A DNA stretch of 64,000 nucleotides from an uncultured Acidobacteriota bacterium (GTDB lineage: Bacteria; Acidobacteriota; UBA6911): positions 64,001 to 128,000 of the forward strand of contig CAWJKZ010000013.1 of NCBI GenBank assembly GCA_963843575.1, in the 5' to 3' direction. The notes under the pieces were generated by a model. It did no database searches, was not told the origin of the DNA, and worked only from the letters and a program-made list of their open reading frames with translations. The first letter of the stretch is position 1, and the number at the start of each line of letters is the position of its first letter. A program made the translations under genes and the position numbers. Below, piece after piece: positions 4,405 through 18,732 of the stretch.

Positions 4405-4986
4405 ATGGGGGCAGTGCAACAAACCGTTCTTTATGAACAGGCGATGGACCCGCACCTGCTCGAGGAGATCTGCTCCACGCCCGGGGGCGCCAAGATAAAG
4501 GACTGCATCCAGTGCGGCACCTGCAGCGGATCGTGCCCGGTGTCCTGGGCGATGGAGGAGACGCCGCGTCAGATCTTCGCGATGATCCGGGCCGGAATGA
4601 AGGAAAGACTCCTCGACACTCTTACGATCTGGACGTGCGCGTCCTGCTACCAGTGCGCGAGCCGCTGCCCGCAGCAGATCAAGATCACCGACGTCATGTA
4701 TGCGCTCAAGCGCATGGCCATCCGCGAAAACCGCACCCGCAGCAAGAAAGCCCGGCTGTTCGCCCAGGAATTCGCGGCGGTGGTCAACCGGCACGGGCGG
4801 GGCCGAGAGACGGAGCTGATGGTGCGCTACATGCTGGCCACCAACCCTCTCGGCGCGTTGTCCGCGGCCCCTGTCGGCATCAACCTGTTCACGCGCGGCC
4901 GGCTTCCGCTCGGCGGGGGATCGGTGCGCGACATCGCAGGCCTCCGGAAGATCATCGCCAAGGCCGGTGAACTGGGAGGTGAGTGA
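4405..4986 (+). CDS. hdrC: Heterodisulfide reductase subunit C
   Basis: CIQCGTCSGSCP and CASCYQCASRCP motifs. AGGAGG RBS. Confidence 0.92.
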   Translation: MGAVQQTVLYEQAMDPHLLEEICSTPGGAKIKDCIQCGTCSGSCPVSWAMEETPRQIFAMIRAGMKERLLDTLTIWTCASCYQCASRCPQQIKITDVMYALKRMAIRENRTRSKKARLFAQEFAAVVNRHGRGRETELMVRYMLATNPLGALSAAPVGINLFTRGRLPLGGGSVRDIAGLRKIIAKAGELGGE

Positions 4987-5864
4987 TGCGGTACGCGTAT
5001 TTTCCGGGTTGTTCGCTCGATTCCACGGCACGACCTTACGGCGAGTCGGTTGAGGCGGTCGCTTCCGCACTGGGCATGGAACTGGTCGAGGTAGACGACT
5101 GGAACTGTTGCGGCGCGACCGCCTACATGTGCGTAAACGAGATCCTCTCGTTCAGCCTGAACGCCCGCAACCTGTGCCAGGCCTCCAAGACGGGAGGGCC
5201 GCTGGTCACGCCGTGCAGCGCCTGCTTTACGAACCTGCGCAAGACCGAGAAGTATCTGGCAGACTTCCCGGACATAAAGAAGAAGGTCGACGCTGCCCTG
5301 GCCGAGGCGGGTTTGCGCTACGACGGCGGCATCGAGACGAAGCACCTGTTACAGGTGGTCGTCGAGGATGTCGGGCTGGAGCGCCTGAAGAGCGCGGTGA
5401 AAAAGCCGCTAGCAGGGTTGCGGGTCGCACCGTACTACGGCTGCCAGATCGCCAGGCCGTACGGCATCGAAGACGACAGCGACGACCCGACGATGCTCGA
5501 TCGCCTCCTGGCCGGGCTTGGGGCGACGCCCACCCACTTCCCGATGAAGACGGTCTGCTGCGGCGGCTCCCTCATCGGAACCCGCGAGGAAGTCGCCCTG
5601 CGGCTCTGCCGTAACCTGCTCATGTGCGCCCAGCAGGATGCGGCCGACTGTATCGCGGTCGCCTGCCCCGTGTGTCAACTCAACCTGGACGCCTACCAGG
5701 CGGCGATCAACAAGTCCTACGGGACGGACTTCAACATCCCTGTCGTCTATTTCACCCAGCTGATCGGTCTCGCGCTGGGGCTCGAGTCCGACGCCCTCGG
5801 ACTGCAGCGCTGCATCGTGCCGGCGACGAGAGTTTTCGCCCGGTTTGCACAGGAGACGCGATGA
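4986..5864 (+). CDS. hdrB: Heterodisulfide reductase subunit B
   Basis: YFPGC, WNCCGA, YYGCQ and VCCGG: two CCG domains. Confidence 0.93.
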   Translation: MRYAYFPGCSLDSTARPYGESVEAVASALGMELVEVDDWNCCGATAYMCVNEILSFSLNARNLCQASKTGGPLVTPCSACFTNLRKTEKYLADFPDIKKKVDAALAEAGLRYDGGIETKHLLQVVVEDVGLERLKSAVKKPLAGLRVAPYYGCQIARPYGIEDDSDDPTMLDRLLAGLGATPTHFPMKTVCCGGSLIGTREEVALRLCRNLLMCAQQDAADCIAVACPVCQLNLDAYQAAINKSYGTDFNIPVVYFTQLIGLALGLESDALGLQRCIVPATRVFARFAQETR

Positions 5865-6724
5865 ACACCAAAATCGGGGTTTATATCTGCCACTGCGGCA
5901 CCAATATTTCCGGCAAGGTAAACGTCTCCGAAGTCACGGAGTTCGCCCGGACGCTCCCCGCCGTAGCGGTCGCGCGGGAGTACAAGTTCATGTGCTCGGA
6001 TCCCGGCCAGATCCTCATACAGGACGATATCAAGAACGCGGGGCTGGACCGGGTCGTGGTGGCTTCCTGCTCCCCTCTGATGCACGAGCCGACCTTCCGA
6101 GGCGCCTGCGAGCGCGCGGACCTCAATCGCTATCTCTTCCAGATGGCGAACATCCGCGAGCATTGTTCCTGGGTGACGGTCGACCCGAATGCGGCGACCG
6201 ACAAGGCGAAGGCACTGGTGGCGGCCGCGGTCGCAAAGGCGTCGGCGCTGGACCCGCTCCCGCGCAAGACGGTCCCAGTCAAAAATGCCGCCGTGGTGGT
6301 TGGGGGCGGCATCGCGGGGATACAGGCGGCACTCGACATCGCGGATTCCGGGCGCACCGTGTACCTGATCGAGCGCGAGCCCTCGATCGGGGGGCACATG
6401 GCCCGCTTCGACAAGACCTTCCCGACGCTCGACTGCGCGGCGTGCATCCTCACGCCGAAGATGGTGCAGGTGGGCAAGCACCCCAACATCAAGCTGATGC
6501 CCTCGACCGAGGTGGAGGAGGTCAGCGGCTTTGTCGGCAACTTCCGGGTGAAGGTCCGGCACAAGGCGACCTACGTGGACAAGGACAAGTGTTCGGGGTG
6601 CGGCATGTGCTGGGAGTCCTGCCCGGCCCGGAAGATCCCTGCGCGCCGGGTGATTCGAAAGGGAAAGCTCATGATCGGTCGGAGCGCCAACGGGAACGGT
6701 TTCCACGGCGGCAGCGCGAAATGA
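5861..6724 (+). CDS. hdrA: Heterodisulfide reductase subunit A, N-terminal half (split hdrA)
   Basis: GVYICHCG, ASCSP, REHCSW, GGGIAG FAD motif, DKTFPTLDCAAC and one CxxCxxCxxxCP. Stops after ~287 aa with an ATGA overlap into the next gene. Confidence 0.9.
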   Translation: MNTKIGVYICHCGTNISGKVNVSEVTEFARTLPAVAVAREYKFMCSDPGQILIQDDIKNAGLDRVVVASCSPLMHEPTFRGACERADLNRYLFQMANIREHCSWVTVDPNAATDKAKALVAAAVAKASALDPLPRKTVPVKNAAVVVGGGIAGIQAALDIADSGRTVYLIEREPSIGGHMARFDKTFPTLDCAACILTPKMVQVGKHPNIKLMPSTEVEEVSGFVGNFRVKVRHKATYVDKDKCSGCGMCWESCPARKIPARRVIRKGKLMIGRSANGNGFHGGSAK

Positions 6725-7083
6725 ACTCACTGCCACAACCGCGGACCCTGACCCTGGCCCAGGTACGGGACATGCTGAACGCCCAGGCCTTCACCGAACT
6801 CGATCTCTCGGCTCCTGTCCAGCGGGTGGGCGCGGCGGATCTGATGAGCGACGTGCTCGCTCTGGGCTGGCCGGGGATGCTCCTGCTGACGGGCCTGGTC
6901 GGCCCCCAGGTGATTCGGACTGCCATCGTGGCGGACCTGTGCGGGGTCGTTTTCGTGCGCGGGAAAAAGCCTAGCGATGACATCCTGGCACTGGCGTTGA
7001 AGGCCCGAATCCCGGTCCTGGGGACGGCACTGACGATGTTCGAGGCGGCGGGGGTGCTCTACGGAGCAATCGGCGGCAGGTGA
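6721..7083 (+). CDS. DRTGG-domain protein
   Basis: AADLMSDVL...LLLTGL...VFVRGKKP pattern typical of hydrogenase-cassette DRTGG proteins. Confidence 0.85.
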   Translation: MNSLPQPRTLTLAQVRDMLNAQAFTELDLSAPVQRVGAADLMSDVLALGWPGMLLLTGLVGPQVIRTAIVADLCGVVFVRGKKPSDDILALALKARIPVLGTALTMFEAAGVLYGAIGGR

Positions 7084-7086
7084 GCG

Positions 7087-7518
7087 ATGGAGCGCGAGGA
7101 GTTCGAGTCCAGCTACCAGGTCGCCGGCCGCGACTTCACGAACGCCGGGAGGGTCTCGACCGACATTAAGGACACGCTCAAGCGCCTCGGCGTCGCCCCG
7201 TCGATCATGCGCAGGGTCGCGATCGCCTGCTACGAGGCGGAGATGAACATAGTCATGTACGCCCATCGCGGGCGGATGGCCCTCCGGGTCAGCCCCCGGG
7301 TGGTGACCATCGAAGCCGCCGACGAAGGACCGGGCATCCAGGACATTGAGCTTGCGATGCAGGAGGGTTATTCGACGGCGACGCCGGAGATGAGAGAAAT
7401 GGGGTTCGGCGCCGGGATGGGGCTGCCGAACATCCGCAGAAACAGCGACGAACTCGAGATCAGTTCCACCGTCGGCCGGGGCACACGGCTGGTGATCCGC
7501 GTGCTCCAATCCGCGTGA
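7087..7518 (+). CDS. Anti-sigma-factor-type Ser/Thr kinase (RsbT/RsbW-like HATPase)
   Basis: YEAEMN, DEGPGI, GYST and GAGMGLPN motifs. Confidence 0.88.
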   Translation: MEREEFESSYQVAGRDFTNAGRVSTDIKDTLKRLGVAPSIMRRVAIACYEAEMNIVMYAHRGRMALRVSPRVVTIEAADEGPGIQDIELAMQEGYSTATPEMREMGFGAGMGLPNIRRNSDELEISSTVGRGTRLVIRVLQSA

Positions 7519-8852
7519 GGAAGAACGTGGCCGCTCAGTACCATCATTCGTTGCGGTTCGATTCCGAGAATTGCGACGGCTGCATGTCCTGTCTGCGTGC
7601 CTGCCCGACGGCAGCGGTGCGGGTGCGCAACGGCCACGCGGTCAAGCTGGCGGACCGGTGCATCGATTGCGGCGAGTGCATCCGGGTCTGCCCCCGCGGC
7701 GCCATCGTTCCCCTCACAAACCACATGGCCGACCTGTCGAAGTTCGAGTGCACGGTGGCCGTGCCCTCGCCGGCCCTCTACGCCCAGTTCGACGCCGATG
7801 TGTCGCCGGGCGCCATCTTCGCCGCCCTCCGCCAGTGCGGCTTTGACGATGTGGAGTGCCTGTCGCCGGCCTGCGATTCCGTCAGCGCGGCCACCGAGAT
7901 GTACCTCAACGCGTACCGGGGCCAGTATCCTCTTATCTCGTCGTTCTGCCCGACCGTGGTCCGGCTAGTCCAGGTGAAGTATCCCGAACTGGTGGACCAA
8001 CTGCTGCCGGTACTGGCTCCGCGCGAGGTTTCCGCCCGGGACGCCAAGGCCCGCAAATCGGCCGAGACCGGCCTTGCCCCCGATCAGATTGGCGCGGTGT
8101 ACATCACCCCGTGCCCCGGCAAGATGGTGGCCATCCTGGAACACCCCGGCATGCAGAGGTCATATCTTGACACCGCCATCTCCATCAGCGACCTCTTCCA
8201 GACCCTTGCGGCGGCAGTCGCCGGTATCGACGATTCCGAGGCGTACCGGCAGGCCGCCGAAACCGCCTCGGGTGTGAGCTGGGCCTTCATGGGCGGTTTG
8301 CCGCGTTCGCTCCCCGCCGAGAACACCCTCGCGGTCGCCGGCCTCCCCAACGTGATCCGCATCCTGGACGACGTCGAAAAGGGGAAGCTTCGGAGGTACT
8401 CGTTCATCGACTGCCACGCCTGCGCCGAGGGGTGTGTGGGCGGATGCCTCACGGTGGAAAACCCGTACGTGGCGCGCGGCAAGATGATCATGTTGTGGCA
8501 GACACTCCCTGCCGGCCCGGCGCTTGACCGCGACGACGTGGAGCGGCGCTACCGCGAAGGCGCGTTCCTGATGGACGAGCCCCTGGCGAGCCGCCCGCTC
8601 AGGCCGCTCGACGAGGACATCTCGCGTGCCATCGCCAAGATGAAGCAGAGGGACCGGATCGTGGCGACCCTGCCCGGGATCGACTGCGGCGCCTGCGGCG
8701 CTCCGTCTTGCCGGGCCTTTGCCGAGGACGTGGTCCTCGGGGACGCCGGGGAAGAGTCGTGCGTCTTCTTTCTCCAGCAGGAGCTCACCGACAGGATCGA
8801 AGGGCTCGCACGCCTCGTCCAGGGCAAGCGCCCCGATGGAGGCCTGAAATGA
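7515..8852 (+). CDS. [FeFe]-hydrogenase-like Fe-S protein (putative sensory, group D/HydS-like)
   Basis: N-terminal 2x[4Fe-4S]. Divergent H-cluster motifs SSFCP, TPCPGK and CHACAEGCVGG. C-terminal DCGACGAPSC Fe-S domain. Confidence 0.8.
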   Translation: MRKNVAAQYHHSLRFDSENCDGCMSCLRACPTAAVRVRNGHAVKLADRCIDCGECIRVCPRGAIVPLTNHMADLSKFECTVAVPSPALYAQFDADVSPGAIFAALRQCGFDDVECLSPACDSVSAATEMYLNAYRGQYPLISSFCPTVVRLVQVKYPELVDQLLPVLAPREVSARDAKARKSAETGLAPDQIGAVYITPCPGKMVAILEHPGMQRSYLDTAISISDLFQTLAAAVAGIDDSEAYRQAAETASGVSWAFMGGLPRSLPAENTLAVAGLPNVIRILDDVEKGKLRRYSFIDCHACAEGCVGGCLTVENPYVARGKMIMLWQTLPAGPALDRDDVERRYREGAFLMDEPLASRPLRPLDEDISRAIAKMKQRDRIVATLPGIDCGACGAPSCRAFAEDVVLGDAGEESCVFFLQQELTDRIEGLARLVQGKRPDGGLK

Positions 8853-9202
8853 ACGTCGAACAGCTTGCAGCGCAGCTCGGTGCGGAAGTGGTATGCGGGG
8901 GGGCTCGGGCCGCGAGCCGCGAGATCCTCGGCGGCTACGCCTCGGACCTGCTTTCGGACGTGATGGCCAATAGCTGCGAAGGGGACCTCTGGGTGACGCT
9001 GCAGCGGCACGTCAATGTCGTGGCGGTGGCCCAGCTCAAAGGGCTGGCCGGGATCCTCCTGGTGAACGGGCGCCGGCCCGAGCCGGCCGCAGCCGAACGC
9101 GCGGACGTGGAGGGCATTCCGATCGTCACCACGGGATTGCCGGCGTTTGAGGTGATCGGCCGCCTTTGCGGGATGGGCATCGGGGGAAGGAGGTCGGGCT
9201 GA
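8849..9202 (+). CDS. DRTGG-domain protein
   Basis: GYASDLLSDVM...WVTLQRHVNVVAVA pattern. ATGA overlap with the upstream gene. Confidence 0.85.
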   Translation: MNVEQLAAQLGAEVVCGGARAASREILGGYASDLLSDVMANSCEGDLWVTLQRHVNVVAVAQLKGLAGILLVNGRRPEPAAAERADVEGIPIVTTGLPAFEVIGRLCGMGIGGRRSG

Positions 9203-10482
9203 GAGTGTTCATGCTGGACACCCACGTGCACACGTGCCTGTCGCCCTGCGCGGAACTGGAGATGCACCCGGCCGCCGTGGCCGGGGCGGCGGTCTCCTCC
9301 GGGCTGGATGCCGTCGCGGTGTGCGATCACAACTCGGCCGAGAATGCGGCCGCCGTGGCGCGCGCCGCGCACAGGTCCGGCCTCGCGGTGATTCCCGGCA
9401 TGGAGATCACCAGCGCCGAGGAGGTTCACGTCCTCGGCCTCTGTCCGGACCTCGAGGCGGCGCTGGAGCTGCAGGCACGTGTTTACCGCTGTCTGCCCGG
9501 CCGCAACGACGCGCGCGCATTCGGCATGCAGGTGGTGGCCAACGAAGACGAGGAGGTGCTCGGCTTCAACGACCACCTCCTGGCCGGCGCGACCACGATG
9601 GCCGTCGACGCCGTGGTCGACGCGATTCACCGGGTGGACGGCCTCGCCGTGGCGTCGCACGTCGACCGCGAGGCTTTTGGAATCTTCGGGCAGCTCGGCA
9701 TGATCCCGGCCGACCTCCGGTTGGATGCCCTGGAGGTCTCGCGACGCACCCCCCTGCCGTCCGCGCGTGCGTCGTTCGCCCCCGGCGGGGAGTGGACTAT
9801 CCTGTGCGCCTCCGATGCGCACGAGCCGAAGGATGTCGGGCAGGCGGCCACGTACATGCTGCTGCAGGAGCCGACCGTCGCGGAACTGCGCCGCGCTTTC
9901 GCCGGCGAAGGGGGACGGACGGTGCTCGGCGGAGGAATGCCGATGGAGGACTTGGCACTGCACATCCTGGACATCGCACGCAACAGCATCGATGCGGGGG
10001 CGACGGAGATCGAGATCGTCATCGAGGAAGACCTCGCCGGCAACCGGCTCACGATCGAGCTGCGCGACAACGGGCGCGGCATGAGCCCGGAAACACTCTC
10101 CCGGGCCGCGGATCCCTTCTTTACCACGCGCACCACGCGCCGGGTCGGCATGGGGCTGCCGCTGCTCGCCCAGGCCGCCCGCAGCGCCGGAGGCGGGCTC
10201 TCGCTGGAGTCGCAACCCGGGCGCGGGACGAGCGTGCGCGCGGTTTTCGAGCACGGCCACATCGATAGGGCACCCCTGGGAGACCTGGAAACAACCCTGA
10301 TGGTGCTGCTCGCAGGTCATTCGGAGATCGACATCAGGTTCCGGCACAGAGTAGACCACGCGGAGTACGAGCTCGACTCCGCCGACCTGCGCGCTGCCGG
10401 GATCGACGTGGGCTCCCCCGAGGGCCTGATGGCGGTGCGCGGCGTCATACGACAGGGAGAGAGATCGTTGTCCAGGAGCTGA
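9199..10482 (+). CDS. PHP phosphoesterase fused to HATPase kinase domain
   Basis: DTHVHTCLSPC, CDHN and SDAH (PHP), then in frame MEDLALHILDIARNS...DNGRG...RRVGMGLP. Start is probably CTG 9199 after AGGAGG (alternatively ATG 9211). Confidence 0.82.
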   Translation: MRVFMLDTHVHTCLSPCAELEMHPAAVAGAAVSSGLDAVAVCDHNSAENAAAVARAAHRSGLAVIPGMEITSAEEVHVLGLCPDLEAALELQARVYRCLPGRNDARAFGMQVVANEDEEVLGFNDHLLAGATTMAVDAVVDAIHRVDGLAVASHVDREAFGIFGQLGMIPADLRLDALEVSRRTPLPSARASFAPGGEWTILCASDAHEPKDVGQAATYMLLQEPTVAELRRAFAGEGGRTVLGGGMPMEDLALHILDIARNSIDAGATEIEIVIEEDLAGNRLTIELRDNGRGMSPETLSRAADPFFTTRTTRRVGMGLPLLAQAARSAGGGLSLESQPGRGTSVRAVFEHGHIDRAPLGDLETTLMVLLAGHSEIDIRFRHRVDHAEYELDSADLRAAGIDVGSPEGLMAVRGVIRQGERSLSRS

Positions 10483-10539
10483 ACCGGGCGTGGTCGAGGG
10501 AACGCGAGACGCGGACAGGAACTGACTTTGGGAGGAAAC

Positions 10540-11028
10540 ATGGTCGACGTCACAAGGGTTCGGGAAATCGTCGGTCGTCACGGCGGTAAACGGGAGCACA
10601 TGATCGCCATCCTGCTCGACTGCCAGGAAGAATACTGCTATCTGCCGCGGGAGGTTCTCGAGGAGCTGTCGGTCCAGATCGACACGCCGCTGACCTCCGT
10701 GCTTTCGATCGCCACGTTCTTCCGTGCCTTCAGCCTCAAGCCGGTGGGCCGCCACCAGGTCCACGTCTGCATGGGCACCGCCTGCAACATCCAGGGGGGG
10801 CCCCGGCTGGTCGAGGCGCTCGAACGCGAGCTGAAGATCAAGAAGGGCGAAACCACGCCGGACATGCAGTTCAGCCTCGACACGGTCAACTGTGTCGGGT
10901 GCTGCGGGCTCGCCCCGGTCATCACCGTCGGACAGGACGTGCACGGAAAACTGAAGCAGTCTTCCATCCCGAGGATTCTGAAGAAGTACAGGTCAAAGGA
11001 GGCAAGCGATGCCGAGACTGTCCATTGA
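10540..11028 (+). CDS. HydC/HndA/NuoE-like [2Fe-2S] subunit
   Basis: CMGTAC and CVGCCGLAP motifs. GGAGG RBS. Confidence 0.92.
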   Translation: MVDVTRVREIVGRHGGKREHMIAILLDCQEEYCYLPREVLEELSVQIDTPLTSVLSIATFFRAFSLKPVGRHQVHVCMGTACNIQGGPRLVEALERELKIKKGETTPDMQFSLDTVNCVGCCGLAPVITVGQDVHGKLKQSSIPRILKKYRSKEASDAETVH

Positions 11029-11392
11029 GGATCTCAAGCGGATACGCGACGAGTCGCGGCACATCCTCACGCTCAGGTCGGGGGAGGCCCGGGCGAAGGT
11101 GACGGTCCACATGGGTACCTGCGGCATTTCGGCCGGTGCGCGCGACGTCATGGGCGCCCTGCTGAAGGCCATCGAGGAACGCAAGATCACCGACGTGATC
11201 GTCACTACGTCGGGTTGTGCCGGGCTCTGCAGCCGGGAGCCGATGGCGACCGTGGAGCTCGCCGGCCAGCCACCGGTCAAGTACGTCGACCTCAAACCGG
11301 ACCGCATGATCCGCATACTGCAGGAGCACGTGCTCGAGGGCAGAATCGTCACCGACTTCGCGCTGGCCAGGGGCTGTGAGACGACCGGCTAG
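11009..11392 (+). CDS. HydD/HndB-like thioredoxin-fold subunit
   Basis: VHMGTCGISAGA and SGCAGLCSREP motifs. Confidence 0.88.
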   Translation: MPRLSIEDLKRIRDESRHILTLRSGEARAKVTVHMGTCGISAGARDVMGALLKAIEERKITDVIVTTSGCAGLCSREPMATVELAGQPPVKYVDLKPDRMIRILQEHVLEGRIVTDFALARGCETTG

Positions 11393-11469
11393 CCTTCCGG
11401 GACGCCCCGAAAACATCGGAAGGCGCGCAGCGCTTTGATCCGCACGTTTTTGCTGGAGGGAAGGGAGAG

Positions 11470-13309
11470 ATGGCATTCCGCACAAATGTTCTGGTTTGCG
11501 CAGGGACCGGGTGCGTGTCCGGGAACTCCTTTGCGACGGCCCGGGCGCTGGAGACCGAGGTGAAGAAACGGGGCCTGGGAGACGAAATCCAGGTGATACG
11601 CACAGGGTGCCAGGGCTTCTGCGCCGAGGGACCCATCGTGATTGTGCAGCCGGACGGCGTCTTCTACTGCGGCGTGGCCGCCAAGGACGCGCCGTACCTG
11701 GTGGAGGAACATTTCCTGAAAGGCCGGCCGGTGCAGAGGCTGATGTACTCGCCGCCGAAGGAAAAGAGCCCCATCCCGGCGCTCAAGGAGATTCCCTTCT
11801 TCGCCAAGCAGAAGCTGGTCGTGCTGCGCAACCGCGGGGCCATCGACCCGGAGCGCATCGACGACTACATCGCCGTGGACGGTTACACCGCACTGGTCAA
11901 AGCCCTGAGAGATGACGCCCGAGCAGATCATCCGGGAGATCAAGAAGTCGGGGCTGCGCGGGCGCGGCGGCGGCGGCTTTCCGACCGGCATCAAGTGGGA
12001 GACCTGCCGCCACGCAGCGAAACAGCGCAACGAGGAACCCGTCGTCGTCTGCAACGCCGACGAAGGCGACCCCGGGGCCTTCATGGACCGCAGCATCATC
12101 GAGAGCGACCCGCACTCCGTCCTCGAGGGGATGATCATCGGCGCGCGGGCGATCGGCTGCAAAGAGGGCTTCGTCTACATCCGGCACGAGTATCCCATTG
12201 CGCGCGAACGCCTGCTCAAGGCCATCGAGCAGGCGCGCGACTACGGCCTCCTCGGCAAGGGCATCCTGGGCTCCGAAATGGATTTCGACGTCGAGATCGT
12301 CCAGGGGGCGGGCGCATTCGTCTGCGGCGAATCGACGGCTCTCATGGCTTCGCTGGAGGGGAAGGCCGGCGAACCGCGCGCCAAGTACATCCACACGGTG
12401 GAGTACGGGTACAAGAACCGGCCGACGAACCTGAACAACGTCGAGACCTGGGCCAACGTCCCGCTGATCATCAGCCGCGGCGCCGAGTGGTTCGCGTCGA
12501 TGGGGACCGGCGAGGTCAGCGAGAATCCCTGGAACGGAAGCAGCGGGACCAAGGTGTTCTCGATGGTCGGCAAGGTGAACAACACCGGGCTGATCGAGGT
12601 CCCGATGGGCCTGACGCTGCGCGAGATCGTCTTCGACATTGGCGGCGGCATCGCGGGCGGCAGCAAATTCAAGGCGGTGCAGACCGGTGGTCCTTCCGGA
12701 GGGTGCCTCCCGGAAGAGCTGCTGGACATGCCGGTCGACTTCGACAGCCTGACCGAAGCGGGCTCGATGATGGGGTCCGGGGGCATGATCGTCATGGACG
12801 ACCAGACCTGCATGGTCGACGTGGCGCGCTACTTCATCGCCTTCCTGACCGAGGAGTCGTGCGGCAAGTGCGTGCCGTGCCGTGAGGGGTTGCGCACCTC
12901 GCTCGACACCCTCACCCGCATCTCGGAAGGCAAGGGGACCGAACACGACATCGAGCTCCTGTACGAGATCGGCGCCGTCATGCAGGACTGCTGTCTGTGC
13001 GCGCTGGGCACGTCCGCCCCGAACCCGGTGCTGTCGACGCTGCGCTATTTCAAGGAGGAGTACGACGCCCACATCAAGGACCACGTCTGCCCGGCGGGCG
13101 TCTGCAAGGACCTGATCGAGTACAGGATCGACGCGGAGAAGTGCGACGGGTGCCACGCCTGTGTGAAAGGCTGCTCCCCCGCGGCCATCGGGGGCGCGGT
13201 CAAGGAGAAGCACTCCATCGACGGGGACAAGTGCATCAAGTGCGGCGCCTGCCTTGAGGTGTGCAAGCGCGACGCGATCGTGAAAGTTCCGAGGAGTCAT
13301 GCGGCATGA
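11470..13309 (+). CDS. HydB/HndC/NuoF-like FMN- and NAD(H)-binding subunit (apparent frameshift near 11908)
   Basis: N-terminal CAGTGC/GCQGFC, then [41 protein letters not shown] and a C-terminal 2x[4Fe-4S]. The two ORFs join if one base is removed. Confidence 0.9.
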
Positions 13310-15064
13310 AGACCATCAAAGTGAAGATCAACGGGATCGAAGCCGAGGCTGCGGACCGCACCCCCATCCTGAACATCGCCGAAAAACTGGGGATCAAGAT
13401 CCCCACGCTGTGCCACCACCCGATCCTGGAACCCTATGGCGTGTGCCGCGTGTGCACCGTCGAGGTCCGCTCGGGCAAACGCGTCCGGATGGTGACGGCC
13501 TGCAATTACCCGGCGACGAACGGCATCGAGGTGCTGACCGATTCCGAGCGGGTCCGGCGCGACCGTAAGCTGATCATCGAGTGGCTGATGTCGCGCTGCG
13601 GGCACGTGCCGGTGATCGAGCAGCTCGCGGCCGAGTACGGCATCACGGAACCGCGGTTCGGACGCGGCGACGACGACTGCATCCTGTGCGGGCTCTGCGT
13701 GCGCGTCTGCTCCGACGTCGTCGGCGCCAATGTCCTCGGGTTCTTCAACCGCGGCACGACTCGCGAGGTCTCGACCGCCTACGGCGAGACCTCGGACAAA
13801 TGCATCGCCTGCGGGGCGTGTGCCCACGTCTGCCCCACAGGCGCAATCCGGATCGAGGACGACGCGGCCCTGGTCCAGAAAGAGCTCCCGATGGGGCCGC
13901 TCACCCCGATCGGCATCCCGTTCATGCAGGCGGTGCCGCACCAGCCGGTGATCGACCGCGATTCGTGCATTCACTTCAAGACCGGCGCGTGCAAGGTGTG
14001 CGAAAAGGTCTGCGAGGTGAAGGCGATCGACCACAGCCAGCAGGACCGCGTCGAGGAACTCGAGGTCGGGGCCGTCGTGCTGGCCACCGGCTTCCAGACC
14101 TTCGACGCCAGGAAGATCCCCGAGTACGGCTACGGCAGGTTCGACAACGTCCTGACCGGCATGGAGTTCGAAAAAATGAACAGCGCTTCGGGCTCGACCG
14201 GCGGCCGGATCCTCATGGCCGACGGCAAGGCCCCGAAGTCGGTGGGGATCATTCACTGCGTCGGCAGCCGCGACCAGCGCCACAACAAGCACTGCTCGCG
14301 CGTCTGCTGCATGTACGCGCTGAAGTTCGCACACCTGATCAAGGAGAAGACCGAGGCCGAGGTCTACAACTTCTACATCGACATGCGCTGCTTCGGAAAG
14401 GGCTACGAGGAGTTCTATCACCGCCTGCTGGAGGAGGGAGTGCGGTTCATCCGGGGCCGGGCCGCGTCGGTCACGGACTTCCCGTTGAACGAACACGAGC
14501 GCGGCAAGCTGATCATCCGCGTCGAGGACACGCTGCTCGGCCAGGTGCGGCGCATCCCGGTCGACATGGTCGTGCTGGCCACAGGGCTCGAAGCCGCAGA
14601 AGGCGCGGCCGAACTCGCCCGCACCTTCCACATCAGCTGCCAGCGGCGGTTTCTTCACCGAGCGGCACCCGAAGCTCGCCCCGGTGTCGACGGCCACGGA
14701 CGGGATCTACATCGCCGGCGCGTGCCAGGGGCCGAAGGACATCCCCGACACGGTCGCACAGGCCTCCGCGGCGGCGTCGCAGGTGCAGGCGCTGATGGCC
14801 AAGGGGGAGATCGAGGTCGAGTCCGCCACGAGCATCGTGGATGCCGAGAAGTGCGCCGGGTGCAGGATCTGCAACACCCTCTGCTCGCTCTCGGCCATCA
14901 GCTTCGACGAGGAGAGGCACGTGTCGGTGATCAACGACGTGCTCTGCAAAGGGTGCGGCACCTGCGCTGCGGCATGCCCGAGCGCTGCCATCATCGCGCG
15001 GCACTTCACCGACGAGCAGCTGTTCGCCGAAATAGAAGGAGCTCTGTATGACGTTCGAGCCTAA
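13306..15064 (+). CDS. Fusion of HydA/NuoG-like Fe-S arm with HdrA C-terminal half (apparent frameshift near 14641)
   Basis: [2Fe-2S] (TLCHH..CRVC..AC) and 2x[4Fe-4S], then HdrA motifs [38 protein letters not shown]. After the shift come [15 protein letters not shown] and a C-terminal ferredoxin. Confidence 0.88.
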
Positions 15065-15485
15065 GATCGTGGGCATTCTCTGCAACTGGTGCTCGTACAC
15101 GGGCGCGGACCTGGCCGGAACCGCCCGCATCAAGTACGCCCCGAACGTGCGCATGATGCGTGTCATGTGCTCCGGCCGAGTCGACCCGACCTTCGTGCTG
15201 AAGGCGTTCGCCGACGGGGCCGACGGGGTGCTCGTCGCCGGGTGCCACCCGGGAGACTGCCACTACATCGACGGGAACTACAAGACCCTGCGCCGCATGG
15301 CGCTGCTGAAGAAGCTGCTCGCCGACTACGGTATCGAGCCGGAACGGTTCCGGCTGGAGTGGGTGTCCGCCTCGGAGGGCGACCGCTGGGCCGAGGTCGT
15401 CAACGGCATCACCGAAGACGTCCGCAGGCTCGGTCCGGCGAAGTTCAAGTCGAAAGGGAAAAAACGAGCCGCCCCGGCGGCCTAG
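15048..15485 (+). CDS. mvhD: MvhD [2Fe-2S] subunit
   Basis: CNWCSYTGAD, MCSGRV and GCHPGDCHY motifs. Confidence 0.95.
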   Translation: MTFEPKIVGILCNWCSYTGADLAGTARIKYAPNVRMMRVMCSGRVDPTFVLKAFADGADGVLVAGCHPGDCHYIDGNYKTLRRMALLKKLLADYGIEPERFRLEWVSASEGDRWAEVVNGITEDVRRLGPAKFKSKGKKRAAPAA

Positions 15486-15498
15486 CACACAGTCTCAT

Positions 15499-15631
15499 AA
15501 GTACGCTGACCTATTTTTCAGGACGCAGAAAACACGGGCGATGAAAGAGAAAAGCCAAAACAGAACGCAGATTCCGCGGGAATCCGCCTCCTGAAAAATG
15601 CGTTAGCGTATTTGCGAACATCAGTACCTAG
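15499..15631. repeat. MITE-like intergenic element, copy 1
   Basis: Imperfect inverted repeats at 15499-15523 and 15589-15613. Shares a 30-nt identical block and a 43-nt block with 35592-35781. Confidence 0.7.
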
Positions 15632-15670
15632 CAGACGCGGGCTGCACATCTACCGGTATTCGGAGGAAGC

Positions 15671-16627
15671 ATGGCGAAACTGAAATTGGCGTCCTACTGG
15701 GCGGCCGCATGCGGGGGATGCGACGTGGGGATCCTGGACCTGCACGAGAAGATCCTGGACCTCGCGGCAGCCGCGGACATCGTCTTCTGGCCCATCGCGC
15801 TCGATTTCAAGTACGAGGATGTCGAGGCCATGCCGGACGGCCACATCGACGTGACCCTGTTTCACGGGGCCGTCCGCAACTCCGAGAACGAGCATCTGGC
15901 GCGGCTGCTGCGCGCCAAGTCCAAGGTCCTGGTCGCATTCGGGACCTGCGCCCACATCGGCGGCATACCGGGCCTGGCCAACCTGTTCGACAAGAAGTCG
16001 ATCTTTCAGCGTGTCTACCACGACTCCCCCTCGACGGTGAACCCCGACGGCGTCGAACCCCAGCCTCGCTCCAGGGTGCCGGAAGGTGAAATTACGATCC
16101 CGGAGTTCTACGACACGGTCCGGTCCCTGGACCAGGTGGTCGACGTCGAGTACTATGTCCCCGGCTGCCCGCCGACCCCGAAGCAGATCTGGAAGGTGGT
16201 GGAGACGATCGTGTCGGGGCAACTGCCACCGCCCGGCGCCGTCATCGGCGCGTCGGAAAAGACGCAGTGCGACGAGTGCACGCGCAAGAAGAGCGAAAAG
16301 AAGATCACCGGATTCAAACGGATCGCGACCGCACAGCCCGATCCGGACACCTGTTTTCTCGACCAGGGTTTCCTGTGCGTCGGCCCCGTGACCCGGGGCG
16401 GATGCGACACCCGCTGCCAGCTGTCGGGAGTCGCCTGCCGCGGCTGCTATGGCCCGCCGCCGGGAGTGCTCGACCAGGGAGCAAAGGCGATCTCGGCCAT
16501 CGCCTCCGTGATCGAGGCCAAGGACGAGGCTGAGGTAGAACGCATAATCGCAGAGATCCCCGACCCGCTCCGGAGCTTTAACCGGTTCGGCATCCCGGGA
16601 TCCTTATTGGTGAGGAAAGCATTATGA
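15671..16627 (+). CDS. mvhG: Group 3c [NiFe]-hydrogenase small subunit
   Basis: CGGC, GTCA, PGCPP, CDEC, CFL..G..C.GP and CRGCYG motifs. Confidence 0.92.
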   Translation: MAKLKLASYWAAACGGCDVGILDLHEKILDLAAAADIVFWPIALDFKYEDVEAMPDGHIDVTLFHGAVRNSENEHLARLLRAKSKVLVAFGTCAHIGGIPGLANLFDKKSIFQRVYHDSPSTVNPDGVEPQPRSRVPEGEITIPEFYDTVRSLDQVVDVEYYVPGCPPTPKQIWKVVETIVSGQLPPPGAVIGASEKTQCDECTRKKSEKKITGFKRIATAQPDPDTCFLDQGFLCVGPVTRGGCDTRCQLSGVACRGCYGPPPGVLDQGAKAISAIASVIEAKDEAEVERIIAEIPDPLRSFNRFGIPGSLLVRKAL

Positions 16628-18084
16628 AGCGCATTTCGATTGATCCCATCACGCGGCTGGAGGGGCACGGCAAGATCGACATCTTCCTGGCCGACGACGG
16701 CAGCGTCGCAAACTGCTACTTCCAGGTGCCCGAGCTGCGCGGCTTCGAGAAGTTCGTCGAAGGCATGCCGGCCGAGGAAGTCCCGCGCGTGGTGTCGCGC
16801 ATCTGCGGCGTCTGACCGGCCGCACACCATTTGGCCTCGGGTAAGGCCATAGATGCAGTCTACAAGGTCGATCCGCCGGTCACGGCGAAGAAGCTGCGCG
16901 AGCTCTACTACAGCGCTCACTTCATGCACAGCCACATAGCCCACTTCTACGCGCTCGCCGCCCCCGACTTCGTCGTGGGCCCGGACGCCGATCCCGCGAA
17001 GCGGAACATCCTCGGCATCGTGGAAAAAGTCGGGGTCCCCGTGGCGGCCGAAGTCCTCAAACACCGCGCCATCGCGCAGGACATCCAGATCATGGTGGGG
17101 GGCAGGTCGACCCACCCCGTCTGGACTCTGCCGGGCGGCGTGTCCAAGGGGATCACCGACGCTCAGCGGCTGGAGATCGTCGAGAAGGCGAAATCGTGCG
17201 TGGAGTTCGCCAGGTTCTCCCTGAAGCTGTTCGAGGACATCGTACTCCAGAACAAGACCTACCTCGACCTGGTCCTCTCGGACATCTACGAGCTCGACTC
17301 GTACTGGATCGGGACCGTCGACGAGAAAAACCGGGTGAACTTCTACCAGGGCGAGCACCGCGTCGTGGATCAGGACGCCAAGGAAGTCTTCCGGTACAAG
17401 GACCACGAGTACCTCGATTTCATCTCGGAACGGGTCGAGCAGTTCAGCTACCTGAAGTTCCCCTTCCTGAAGAAGATCGGCTGGAAGGGGCTCGTAGCCG
17501 GACGTGACTCGGGCGTGTACCAGGCGACCCCGCTCTCGCGGCTCAACGCGGCCGACGGGATGGCGACGCCGCTGGCGCAGGCCGAGTACGAGAAGATGTA
17601 CAAAACCCTCGGCGGCAAACCTGTGAAAAAGCTCCTGGCCACGCACTGGGCGCGGCTGGTCGAGTTGCTGTACGCGGCCGAGCGGATGCTCGAGCTGGCC
17701 CAGGACCCGCAGGTCGCGTCGACCGACATCCGCACCCTCCCGACGGCGGTCCCGGAAGAGGGCATCGGGATCGTCGAGGCGCCGCGTGGAATCCTGACCC
17801 ATCACTACAAGACAGACCGGAACGGGCTCATCACCGAAGCGAACCTCGTCGTGGGAACGACGAATAATCATGCGCCGATCTCGCTGGCGATCAAGCAGGC
17901 CGCCCAGCGGCTCATCCAGCCCGGAAAGGCGATCGGGCAGGATCTCCTCAACATGGTGGAGATGGCGTTCCGGATCTTTGACCCGTGCTTCTCGTGCGCG
18001 ACCCACTCCCTGCCGGGGGAAATGCCCCTCGTCGTGGAGGTCCACGCCGCCGACGGCACCGTGGTCCACCGCGTTTCGCGGTAG
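16624..18084 (+). CDS. mvhA: Group 3c [NiFe]-hydrogenase large subunit, predicted selenoprotein (UGA at codon 64)
   Basis: TRLEGHG, RGFE, then RICGV-TGA-PAAHHLAS continuing in the same frame to EAPRG and DPCFSCATH plus a C-terminal extension. 486 aa with readthrough. Confidence 0.9.
16816..16856 (+). promoter_or_regulatory. Candidate bacterial SECIS element
   Basis: Stem TGGCCT (16832-16837) / AGGCCA (16844-16849) with loop CGGGTA starting 22 nt after the TGA. Stem extends via CAT/ATG. Confidence 0.75.
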
Positions 18085-18126
18085 CACCTGCGCGTCGGGC
18101 GGCGCGTGGCAATCAGCGGAATAACG

Positions 18127-18179
18127 AAGCCGGAAGTCAGGACCCGGGAACGGCTGCTGGCTTCCGGCTTTTGGCTTTT
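18127..18179 (+). terminator. Hairpin with T-tract after mvhA
   Basis: AAGCCGGAAGTCAG...CTGGCTTCCGGCTT followed by TTGGCTTTT. Confidence 0.5.
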
Positions 18180-18234
18180 GGCGCGAACCAGATTCACGTT
18201 ACGCAGCACATAACGGACTGCCGCGATACACCCT

Positions 18235-18732
18235 ATGCGAACGCGGGTAATTGGTCTGGGCAACAGCCTCCTGTCCGACGACGGCGTCGGGATTTACGCG
18301 GCCCGGGAAGTGGCGCGCCGACTCGCCGGGACCGCTCGCGCGGATCCGGTGGACGTAACCGAGTCGGAAGTGGCGGGCTTCGCCCTGATGGAGCTGATGG
18401 CCGGCTGGGACCGCGTCGTGCTCGTCGACTCCGTTGTGTTCGAAGGAGTCGAACCGGGTACGGTCCTGCAGCTGGCGGCCGACGACCTGCACACCTCTCT
18501 CCGGCTGCGTTCCGTGCACGATATCGACCTCCCTACCGCCCTCGAACTCGGCCGTCGCCTCGGCCTGAGTATGCCGTCCGATGTCGTGATCTTCGGCATC
18601 CAGGTCCTGGATCCGTACACCCTGGGGGAAACCCTCACGGAACCTGCAGCCGCCGGACTGCGCGCCGCGACAGACCTGATCCTCCGGGAATTAATTCCCG
18701 CCGACTGCCCCAATTTCCTGCCGCCCTTGTAG
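18235..18732 (+). CDS. Hydrogenase maturation protease (HycI/HybD family)
   Basis: VIGLGNSLLSDDGVG, VDS and SVHD motifs. Follows a large subunit that has a cleavable tail. Confidence 0.93.
   Translation: MRTRVIGLGNSLLSDDGVGIYAAREVARRLAGTARADPVDVTESEVAGFALMELMAGWDRVVLVDSVVFEGVEPGTVLQLAADDLHTSLRLRSVHDIDLPTALELGRRLGLSMPSDVVIFGIQVLDPYTLGETLTEPAAAGLRAATDLILRELIPADCPNFLPPL

Follow-up and report, generated by a model that had tools for sequence, protein, structure and literature searches.

The window analysed here is a 64,000-nucleotide stretch of DNA from an uncultured Acidobacteriota bacterium (assembly GCA_963843575.1, genome G000 below; contig CAWJKZ010000013.1, positions 64,001 to 128,000 of the forward strand), and the element under study is its open reading frame (ORF) at 13306–15064. 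Sequence comparison identifies this ORF as a genuine, conserved fusion, in which the iron–sulphur arm of a Bfu-type bifurcating enzyme, BfuA, continues into the C-terminal part of the heterodisulfide reductase subunit HdrA, while the N-terminal part of HdrA is encoded by a gene of its own. We consider it likely, with a probability of roughly 0.75, that the locus specifies an Mvh–Hdr–Bfu supercomplex, built from a fusion that is a single polypeptide and from an HdrA that is split around a bfuCBA cassette. Two genes are central to this reading:

13306–15064, + strand: BfuA (Type 2)::HdrA C-terminal part, in frame 1 to ~14640 and in frame 2 from ~14645, with one extra base
5861–6724, + strand: hdrA N-terminal part, with the Cys4 domain, the GGGIAG Rossmann motif for flavin adenine dinucleotide (FAD), the first CxxCxxCxxxCP motif and a stop

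The ORF begins with an ATG at 13306 that overlaps the stop of the NuoF-like gene, and its stop codon ends at 15064; the product is most likely one polypeptide of ~585 residues, interrupted in the window copy by an assembly error. Searches with Pfam located Fer2_4 on residues 2–80, a Fer4_7/Fer4_Nqo3 dicluster domain on residues 125–181, a weak match only to Pyr_redox_2 on residues 360–432, and a Fer4 dicluster domain on the frame-2 piece. Conservation was assessed throughout over 66 homologues (mean column identity 64%), in which the [2Fe-2S] ligands Cys36/47/50/66 and the [4Fe-4S] ligands Cys125/128/131/135 and Cys166/169/172/176 were invariant. These twelve cysteines bear out the original prediction, made from the letters of the window, that the first ~180 residues carry one [2Fe-2S] and two [4Fe-4S] clusters. 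It had also read MSRCGHVP as a degenerate form of the His-ligated HxxxCxxC motif, and this octapeptide (residues 95–102, nt 13588–13611) indeed falls in the segment between the [2Fe-2S] and the first [4Fe-4S] motif, residues 67–124, which lacks any invariant or near-invariant cysteine or histidine among the homologues. The PDB was searched by phmmer with the intact orthologue from the related genome G014, which is 85% identical to the window copy. Residues 4–185 found their best match in 9MQX_A (E 5.5e-41), the BfuA of an electron-bifurcating tungsten aldehyde oxidoreductase. According to the available portion of PMC9304861, Type-2 BfuA proteins lack clusters A3 and A5 and feed through A4; A3 we infer to be the His-ligated cluster. 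Residues 1–185 are best assigned as a Type-2 BfuA, with a [2Fe-2S] and two [4Fe-4S] clusters and without the His-ligated one.

The ferredoxin domain of BfuA extends to about residue 185 (nt ~13860), and the sequence PFMQAVP stands at residues 205–211 (nt 13918–13938), close to where the junction had been expected, at ~13850–13890. Residues 142/165–582 matched HdrA of 5ODC, 8RVU and 7BKB from HdrA residue 222–253 onwards (E 1e-97 to 8e-118), the HdrA part scoring ~395 bits against the solved HdrA chains; neither this match nor that to BfuA can be put down to chance. Neither Pfam nor phmmer against the PDB returned an H-cluster-type domain after the BfuA part, in keeping with the proposal that the iron–sulphur arm is joined to HdrA where such a domain would sit. 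When the protein was aligned to methanogen HdrA of 5ODC, as had been suggested, the segments MEFE (residues 286–289), HCVGSRD (317–323) and a Cys/Lys segment (330–340) fell on Glu356, Cys386, Cys399/403/404 and Lys409 (our count, from printed coordinates), and both C-terminal ferredoxin motifs were kept. The glutamate of MEFE (Glu289) and the lysine of ALK (Lys340), whose retention had been anticipated, were invariant, as were C318, C330, C334 and the QxPKDIP motif. The C-terminal 2×[4Fe-4S] ferredoxin domain adds eight invariant cysteines, and of the 28 cluster cysteines of the fusion all are invariant except C335, found in at least 90% of the homologues. The remaining ~400 residues accordingly correspond to HdrA starting at the second of the two Cys motifs in its inserted ferredoxin domain and extending to the C-terminus. 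Predicted within this piece are the NADPH-like domain with the CC-type [4Fe-4S] cluster, Glu and Lys on the flavin side, the FAD domain's C-terminal part, and the C-terminal 2×[4Fe-4S] domain, on which MvhD would dock.

The GxGxxG Rossmann motif and the Cys4 [4Fe-4S] domain were absent from the fusion ORF in the Pfam and PDB searches. The original prediction had noticed the missing GGGIAG half; this half is not lost but resides in the separate gene at 5861–6724, in which Pfam recognised FAD_oxidored, NAD_binding_8, Pyr_redox_2 and Fer4. This N-part also contains the conserved segment FPTLDCAAC and stops ~30 residues after its first CxxCxxCxxxCP motif. When the first 246 residues of a same-family canonical HdrA served as query, one strong match each was returned in G000, G014, G017, G006 and G004 (57–61% identity, residues 8–244), every time in the same gene cluster as the fusion; the window match lies at 5867–6577 (59% identity to residues 8–244). 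No other HdrA was found in G000 with either the fusion or the N-part as query. Relative to a canonical HdrA of 665 residues, the N-part covers residues 9–263 and the fusion residues 247/249–643, the short overlap arising because the second Cys motif of BfuA aligns to the first of HdrA. The two Cys motifs of the inserted ferredoxin domain are divided between the genes: the fusion ORF has motif B (C221/229/232/236), and motif A closes the N-part. Counted by itself, the fusion thus carries three ferredoxin-type motifs, to which the N-part adds a fourth; an earlier reading of three Cys motifs with one orphan was dropped once motif A had been found there. The N-part sits 6.6 kb upstream of the fusion, directly after hdrC and hdrB, and in four loci it is fused in frame to BfuC. 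HdrA is thus split into two genes rather than truncated, with the cut between the two halves of the inserted ferredoxin domain, the low-potential exit of HdrA, and the fusion reads as the C-terminal ~60% of the only HdrA found in G000. This amends the proposed role of an adaptor that plugs the NADH/ferredoxin module into HdrA: the fusion does connect the NuoE/NuoF (BfuCB) module to HdrA chemistry, but it is itself most of that HdrA, and no separate one was found in G000. Under a strict one-polypeptide definition of HdrA the fusion is not a member, since the Rossmann motif and Cys4 domain come only in trans.

A side observation concerns the stand-alone N-part in three loci from Anaerolineae metagenome-assembled genomes (MAGs; L047:1517–2347, L048:1645–2475 and L050:2634–3464), which has an in-frame TGA at codon 192, in place of the last Cys of FPTLDCxxC; the window and most other loci have Cys. 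These genes probably encode a selenocysteine form of HdrA.

The fusion recurs clearly among homologues, contrary to the possibility, raised with the original prediction, that they never show it. Both parts were matched in one frame in 8 of 40 relatives. Among protein clusters (120 listed, 8000 scored), 112 of the 120 listed cover at least 98% of the 585-residue query at 57–95% identity; their named sources read "heterodisulfide reductase subunit A/A2" or "4Fe-4S dicluster domain-containing protein", some from Acidobacteriota MAGs. In a survey of the best 80 loci, with one genome per species, a locus was called fused if its match started within the first 15 residues. This held for 23 of the 80, with MAG labels from at least 10 phyla: Zixibacteria, Armatimonadetes, Eubacteriales, Aminicenantes, Ignavibacteriaceae, Calditrichaeota, Verrucomicrobiota, Bryobacterales, Anaerolineae, Desulfococcaceae, Desulfobacterales and one "archaeon". 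Several of the 23 are cut by contig ends, and their gene neighbourhoods comprise:

NuoF-like gene directly upstream: 20/23 fused loci
NuoE-like gene upstream: 21/23 fused loci
HdrA_N upstream, same strand: 19/23 fused loci
HdrB: 9/23 fused loci
MvhD within 3 kb downstream: 16/23 fused loci
MvhG: 11/23 fused loci
MvhA: 8/23 fused loci

In three of the four fused loci that lack HdrA_N, either too little upstream sequence is visible or it is filled with regulators. Where the hydrogenase is missing, the fusion and MvhD are followed by FrhB-like, HdrCB-like and large HdrA-like genes, so the split HdrA/Bfu unit seems to be used with several partners. A quick IQ-TREE tree of the HdrA C-part (88 of 89 loci) required eight changes of the fused label, at least six of them forced by well-supported branches. 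Some labels are doubtful (L053, L054, L060 and L068): these rows, at least four of those labelled "canonical", either are truncated by a contig end or begin within the BfuA part, and L030, L043, L064 and L105 were labelled fused from match coverage instead of match start.

Larger relatives of the fusion were also seen (L013/L030, L043, L052 and L064). In contig C169 of G022 (L013/L030), BfuA::HdrA_C runs into a second, complete HdrA in one frame of more than 1100 codons, behind a GltD/NfnB-like gene. In MAGs labelled Desulfobacterales or Myxococcales, the unit is followed by FrhB-like and HdrCB-like proteins and by ~1000-residue HdrA-like proteins with a response-regulator receiver domain.

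Structure prediction was performed for the fusion with AlphaFold2 from a 66-row alignment, resulting in a mean pLDDT (predicted score in the local distance difference test) of 77 and a predicted template modelling (pTM) score of 0.48. Compared by Foldseek, this model superposed on BfuA 9MQX_A with an rmsd (root-mean-square deviation) of 1.7 Å over 184 columns (43% identity) and on HdrA 8RVU_a with 3.6 Å over 291 columns. Folded alone, the fusion fell below a pLDDT of 50 at the FAD-side segments 452–460 and 471–484. The G014 N-part was then modelled together with fusion residues 186–585 and FAD, in three runs and with three controls. The median score was 0.89, against 0.61 for the best control; of 80 solved complexes 58 attained this mark, as did 2 of 110 mismatched pairs, counts that apply only roughly because the job used our own alignments and a riding ligand. 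The three runs shared at least 85% of their contacts, with partner pLDDT values of 85–86. In the complex model, the Rossmann strand and helix of the N-part (residues 143–156) pack on fusion residues 254–263 and 482–494, and motif A (243–259) packs on the motif B region (220–243). The modelled interface is what a rebuilt HdrA would need; it speaks for a fit of the halves rather than for binding, and likeness to solved HdrA structures may explain the pass.

These findings bear on a simpler view, in which the system is a plain [NiFe] hydrogenase linked to ferredoxin and nicotinamide adenine dinucleotide (NAD(H)), the HdrA part a flavin-free Fe–S wire with a dock for MvhD, and hdrC, hdrB and hdrA_N parts of a different enzyme. 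In favour of this view, a dinucleotide-binding motif is absent from the fusion, HydABCSL (7T2R) is an example of a NiFe-Bfu hydrogenase lacking Hdr, and regulators lie between hdrA_N and bfuC in the family of the window. Such a wire nevertheless seems improbable to us: hdrA_N accompanies the fusion in most fused loci and in 5/5 genomes tested, and is even joined to BfuC in some; the N-part would be orphaned without the other ~60% of HdrA, the searches of G000 having yielded no second HdrA; Glu and Lys on the flavin side and QxPKDIP are invariant; and the complex model rebuilds the FAD domain.

The other genes of the locus, assigned with Pfam except where indicated, are as follows:

4405–4986, + strand: hdrC-like, two 4Fe-4S motifs (Fer4_8/Fer4_17; homologues in the same order upstream of HdrA in related loci)
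4986–5864, + strand: hdrB-like, two CCG domains (CCG in two stretches, 7.6e-25; conserved before hdrA_N)
6727–7083, + strand: small DRTGG-protein paralogue (tblastn matches also on the second DRTGG gene of relatives, 28–38% identity; zero Pfam families at 1e-4)
7087–7518, + strand: histidine-kinase-like ATPase, regulatory (HATPase_c_2)
7515–8852, + strand: [FeFe]-hydrogenase-like protein, probably a sensor (Fer4, Fe_hyd_lg_C and FeS domain)
8840–9202, + strand: DRTGG-domain protein
9211–10482, + strand: PHP + HATPase_c protein
10540–11028, + strand: BfuC/NuoE-like [2Fe-2S] thioredoxin-like subunit (2Fe-2S_thioredx, 1.4e-45)
11009–11392, + strand: small thioredoxin-like ferredoxin (weak; 2Fe-2S_thioredx at 0.0058, below the cut-off; conserved in relatives)
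11470–13309, + strand: BfuB/NuoF-like flavin mononucleotide (FMN) subunit (Complex1_51K, NADH_4Fe-4S, SLBB, Fer4; two frames in the window)
15048–15485, + strand: MvhD (FlpD) [2Fe-2S] adaptor (FlpD, 3.4e-55)
15671–16627, + strand: [NiFe]-hydrogenase small subunit, MvhG-like (Oxidored_q6)
16624–18084, + strand: [NiFe]-hydrogenase large subunit, MvhA-like, with an in-frame TGA at 16813–16815 (NiFeSe_Hases)
18235–18732, + strand: hydrogenase maturation protease of the HycI family (HycI)

The order is thus hdrC-hdrB-hdrA_N, regulators, bfuC-small ferredoxin-like-bfuB-bfuA::hdrA_C, and mvhD-mvhG-mvhA-hycI, and Pfam found no AOR-type gene within 4405–18732. It is kept in G014, G006, G017, G004 and G001, and partly in G021 and G007. 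In other phyla the regulators are absent and the order is hdrC-hdrB-hdrA_N-bfuC-bfuB-bfuA::hdrA_C-mvhD-mvhG-mvhA-hycI (for instance L031, L033, L049 and L061). Canonical loci have hdrC-hdrB-hdrA-mvhD-mvhG-mvhA-hycI (for instance L055–L058, L073 and L093), the same order without the cassette. The simplest description of the locus would be an hdrCBA-mvhDGA operon with a bfuCBA cassette inside hdrA. The original prediction had mentioned neither the hydrogenase nor hdrCB in connection with the fusion. As a side observation, the regulators at 6727–10482 comprise two DRTGG-type proteins, HATPase_c_2, PHP + HATPase_c and Fe_hyd_lg_C/FeS, and the same operon does without them in other phyla. Accessory genes of HydABC operons include hisK and hydD (PMC9304861, available portion); the likeness of the regulators to these hints, by analogy, at an origin of the cassette in such an operon.

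BfuB, the expected partner of the BfuA part, has an N-terminal [2Fe-2S] and a C-terminal 2×[4Fe-4S] domain. Its orthologue at L023:5853–7691 matched NiFe-HydB 7T2R_B end to end (residues 3–606, E 6e-228), which was the best PDB match. Of the five B2-cluster ligands named in the available portion of PMC9304861, four are kept in BfuB (our count, from the printed alignment). BfuB also carries a Cys-Cys pair ~22 residues past the Thr that stands at the fifth position, just before the last Cys of the N3 cluster (again our count), and this pair may be a relocated B2 ligand.

The ORF comprises 1759 bases, which is not a multiple of three, a feature that the original prediction did not mention. Frame 1 from 13306 encodes 445 sensible residues and then arginine-rich nonsense up to 15051, and the HdrA sequence resumes in frame 2 from ~14645 to the stop at 15064. 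In a DNA alignment, the window carries one base more than three orthologues near 14640. A further frame change is found in the neighbouring NuoF-like gene, which lacks two bases after ~11908. In six relatives of the same family the fusion gene is in one frame, with 589–613 codons and 81–85% identity. Control genes of the 6.68-Mb genome (27 contigs, 88% completeness) proved to be shifted as well: rpoB (C24:252860–257103) was matched in seven pieces with six frame changes by coordinates and rpoC (C24:257298–261310) in four pieces with two, that is ~8 frame changes in 8 kb, and selA (C8:2469–3523) was also in pieces. The same-genus genome G001 showed many shifts through the whole operon. The frame change near 14640 is most likely an assembly error, because the essential rpoB and rpoC are also shifted and the orthologues are in one frame; a programmed frameshift was ruled out on the same two grounds. 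With indels this frequent in G000, and also in G001, gene calls and the completeness of 88% are unreliable, so that apparent pseudogenes in the window need to be checked against relatives. Public sequencing runs reached a share of sampled words of 0.11 at most. At 85% likeness, the contigs of X1, X2, X3 and X17 gave short pieces only. A few of these are near-identical, at 13695–13878, 13630–13778, 13927–14075 and 14761–15064, as is one RNA-library contig at 14951–15064, which does not demonstrate transcription; no single near-identical piece bridges the junction at 13860–13918.

In the MvhA-like gene, the TGA at 16813–16815 stands in for the second Cys of RxCGxC, the N-terminal nickel-site motif. 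Of 52 related loci, 10 have TGA at this codon (L024, L028, L029, L055–L058, L062, L063 and L078) and the other 42 have TGC or TGT, and G000 has tRNA-Sec, a full SelB and a fragmented SelA. The position has the look of a selenocysteine (Sec)/Cys pair within the N-terminal motif. In known [NiFeSe] enzymes, Sec resides in the C-terminal motif, where the window protein has Cys, and one search of the literature gave no mention of Sec at the N-terminal [NiFe] motif. A GGCC-loop-GGCC hairpin lies ~20 nt past the TGA in the minimum-energy fold of the window, with energies like those of shuffles (z -1.1 to +0.6, four sequences).

Two frame changes and one in-frame stop within 7 kb, together with the broken operon of G001, could instead denote a decaying operon, in which the lesions of the BfuB, fusion and hydrogenase genes are real inactivating mutations. 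We regard this as highly improbable, given the same damage in rpoB, rpoC and selA of this genome, the alternation of TGA with TGC/TGT at one codon in orthologues, and the presence of tRNA-Sec and SelB; moreover, a 6.7-Mb genome in 27 contigs at 88% completeness would be the pattern expected of an indel-prone assembly.

Among characterised systems, the closest on the Hdr side is MvhAGD-HdrABC of hydrogenotrophic methanogens (5ODC/5ODH; Elp-Hdr 8RVU), with the same set of hdrC, hdrB, hdrA, mvhD, mvhG and mvhA; the gene order found here is that of canonical bacterial loci. In contrast to MvhAGD-HdrABC, HdrA is here in two polypeptides, cut inside the inserted ferredoxin domain, and its low-potential exit would be equipped with a fixed NAD(H)/ferredoxin Bfu module instead of a docking ferredoxin or polyferredoxin. 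On the Bfu side, the Type-2 prototype is WorABCSL of Acetomicrobium mobile (9MQX), on whose BfuA the N-terminal 185 residues superpose. The N-terminal [2Fe-2S] and the two [4Fe-4S] sites of Type-2 BfuA (A1, A2 and A4) are present in the fusion and the extra-cluster segment is likewise absent (PMC9304861, available portion). Unlike in WorABCSL, BfuA is not a free subunit of ~250 residues but is continued by 400 residues of HdrA, and the third-substrate module would be an Hdr–Mvh assembly rather than a tungsten oxidoreductase. NiFe-HydABCSL (NiFe-Bfu) of A. mobile (7T2R/7T30) likewise combines a BfuBC core with a [NiFe] hydrogenase, and its operon likewise includes accessory genes for kinase-like and small ferredoxin-like proteins; in that enzyme, BfuA is in direct contact with the hydrogenase small subunit via A3, and MvhD, HdrA and HdrBC are lacking (same source, same portion). 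Here, the A3 segment is absent, the hydrogenase is of Mvh type, and MvhD and the split HdrA stand between, so the fusion is not of the HydABCSL NiFe-Bfu type. Finally, in class II benzoyl-CoA reductase (BCRII), Bam[(BC)2DEFGHI]2, a HydBC/Bfu-type module shares one complex with a module of HdrA type; it is the only characterised enzyme of this kind in the literature consulted, and it also has an MvhD-like adaptor and, at flavin N5, a Lys, from which we take the role of the Lys in the fusion (bioRxiv 10.64898/2026.04.10.717634, available portion, as for all BCRII statements here). Its subunits are separate: BamE is a fused HdrA dimer, the Bfu arm is on the input side via BamI, and the output is a tungsten enzyme. 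In the present system, by comparison, Bfu is covalently attached at the inserted ferredoxin domain, the input side has a [NiFe] hydrogenase, and HdrA is single and split. With no tungsten unit and another attachment point, it does not belong to Bam-Bfu. According to the BCRII preprint, no report earlier than BCRII had placed two bifurcation modules in a single complex.

Our literature searches turned up no account of an HdrA that is interrupted by a Bfu/NuoEFG module or joined to one; the supplements of PMC9304861 and the HdrA-module review by Appel et al. 2021 may bear on it. The available main text of PMC9304861 names no such class, and PMC7325909, PMC9325076, PMC5736913 and 10.1101/197269 contained nothing relevant to a split HdrA. 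Tandem and complementary HdrA forms are described in PMC9012536, but not the split or Bfu-fused form. What emerges is a variant, widespread and apparently undescribed, in which a hydrogenase is linked with two bifurcation machines that are each known.

In the supercomplex as we propose it, the two HdrA pieces would reassemble one FAD domain and one inserted ferredoxin domain. MvhA would oxidise H2, with electrons passing via MvhG and MvhD to the FAD held between the HdrA pieces, consistent with the available portion of PMC12350162, in which the HdrA flavin receives donor-arm electrons through the [2Fe-2S] of an MvhD-type subunit. The high-potential branch would run via HdrC and HdrB to a disulfide. 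The low-potential branch would leave by way of the reassembled inserted ferredoxin domain, where the same portion of PMC12350162 places the anticipated exit for electrons and the dock of a polyferredoxin, and would continue down the covalently attached BfuA clusters rather than to free ferredoxin. The BfuBC core would take the BfuA electrons and exchange them with NAD(H) and ferredoxin. The domain identities, the split, the gene order and their conservation are direct observations; assembly into one complex, the path from cluster to cluster, the direction of flow and the substrates are what this scheme presumes.

Several points weigh against the supercomplex. The window copy is not one open frame, and no near-identical read contig covers the shift site at ~14640 (contigs of X1, X2, X3 and X17; 85% likeness), so that the assignment as an assembly error rests on rpoB/rpoC and the orthologues. 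In the family of the window, ~3.8 kb of regulatory genes part hdrA_N from bfuC, which makes co-translation or co-regulation of the HdrA halves not obvious. In 7 of the 23 fused loci no MvhD match lies within 3 kb downstream, and MvhG is present in only 11, which would make the hydrogenase one partner among several. The fifth B2 ligand, Cys476 of the A. mobile enzyme, is the Thr of BfuB mentioned above. The linker at residues 194–213 has a pLDDT below 50 and, with the low pTM of 0.48, makes the distance from the BfuA clusters to those of the HdrA inserted domain unreadable from the model, and one control of the complex job scored as high as 0.61. We found no experiments on any member in the literature, and the direction of electron flow cannot be read from sequence.

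The main rival to the supercomplex in its proposed direction is the same complex with Bfu reversed, in which NADH and reduced ferredoxin would be confurcated in BfuBC and passed via BfuA into the inserted domain of HdrA, the hydrogenase then serving as an outlet or a further input. PMC9304861 (available portion) describes Bfu enzymes as reversible, in BCRII the HdrA-type BamE receives its confurcating input from the Bfu-type BamGHI, and in other lineages the FrhB-like, HdrCB-like and large HdrA-like genes, and not a hydrogenase, follow the fusion and MvhD. We nonetheless judge this direction unlikely, since the Bfu arm of BCRII enters by BamI at the C-terminal ferredoxin domain/BamF, whereas here it is attached at the inserted domain and MvhGA occupies the MvhD side; moreover, two inputs with only a disulfide as acceptor would waste low-potential electrons. 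The flavin-free wire and the decaying operon are both much less likely than this reversed use.

The forward supercomplex would be of consequence in several respects. Flavin-based bifurcation by HdrA and FMN/Fe–S-based bifurcation by Bfu are each known; here they are joined at the gene level, at the low-potential exit of HdrA, and tied to a [NiFe] hydrogenase, in a fusion found in hundreds of sequences from many phyla. If this holds true, many "HdrA2" and "4Fe-4S dicluster protein" annotations would hide an NAD(H) link of Mvh-type hydrogenases, and the reading of H2 metabolism from soil and sediment metagenomes would change. The naturally split FAD domain, with halves that could be expressed apart, would provide a handle for dissecting HdrA, and the system a test case for low-potential electron hand-over between two bifurcating centres. 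More speculatively, the two machines might work in series from H2, the low-potential branch of HdrA serving as the "mid-potential" input of the Bfu core, which would bifurcate again between NAD+ and ferredoxin. This we hold to be a doubtful extension; if true, ferredoxin or another acceptor would be reduced well below the usual -500 mV at low H2 pressure, in a mirror image of the confurcation-then-bifurcation cascade proposed for BCRII, and this capacity would be widespread in soil and sediment bacteria with "group 3c" hydrogenases.

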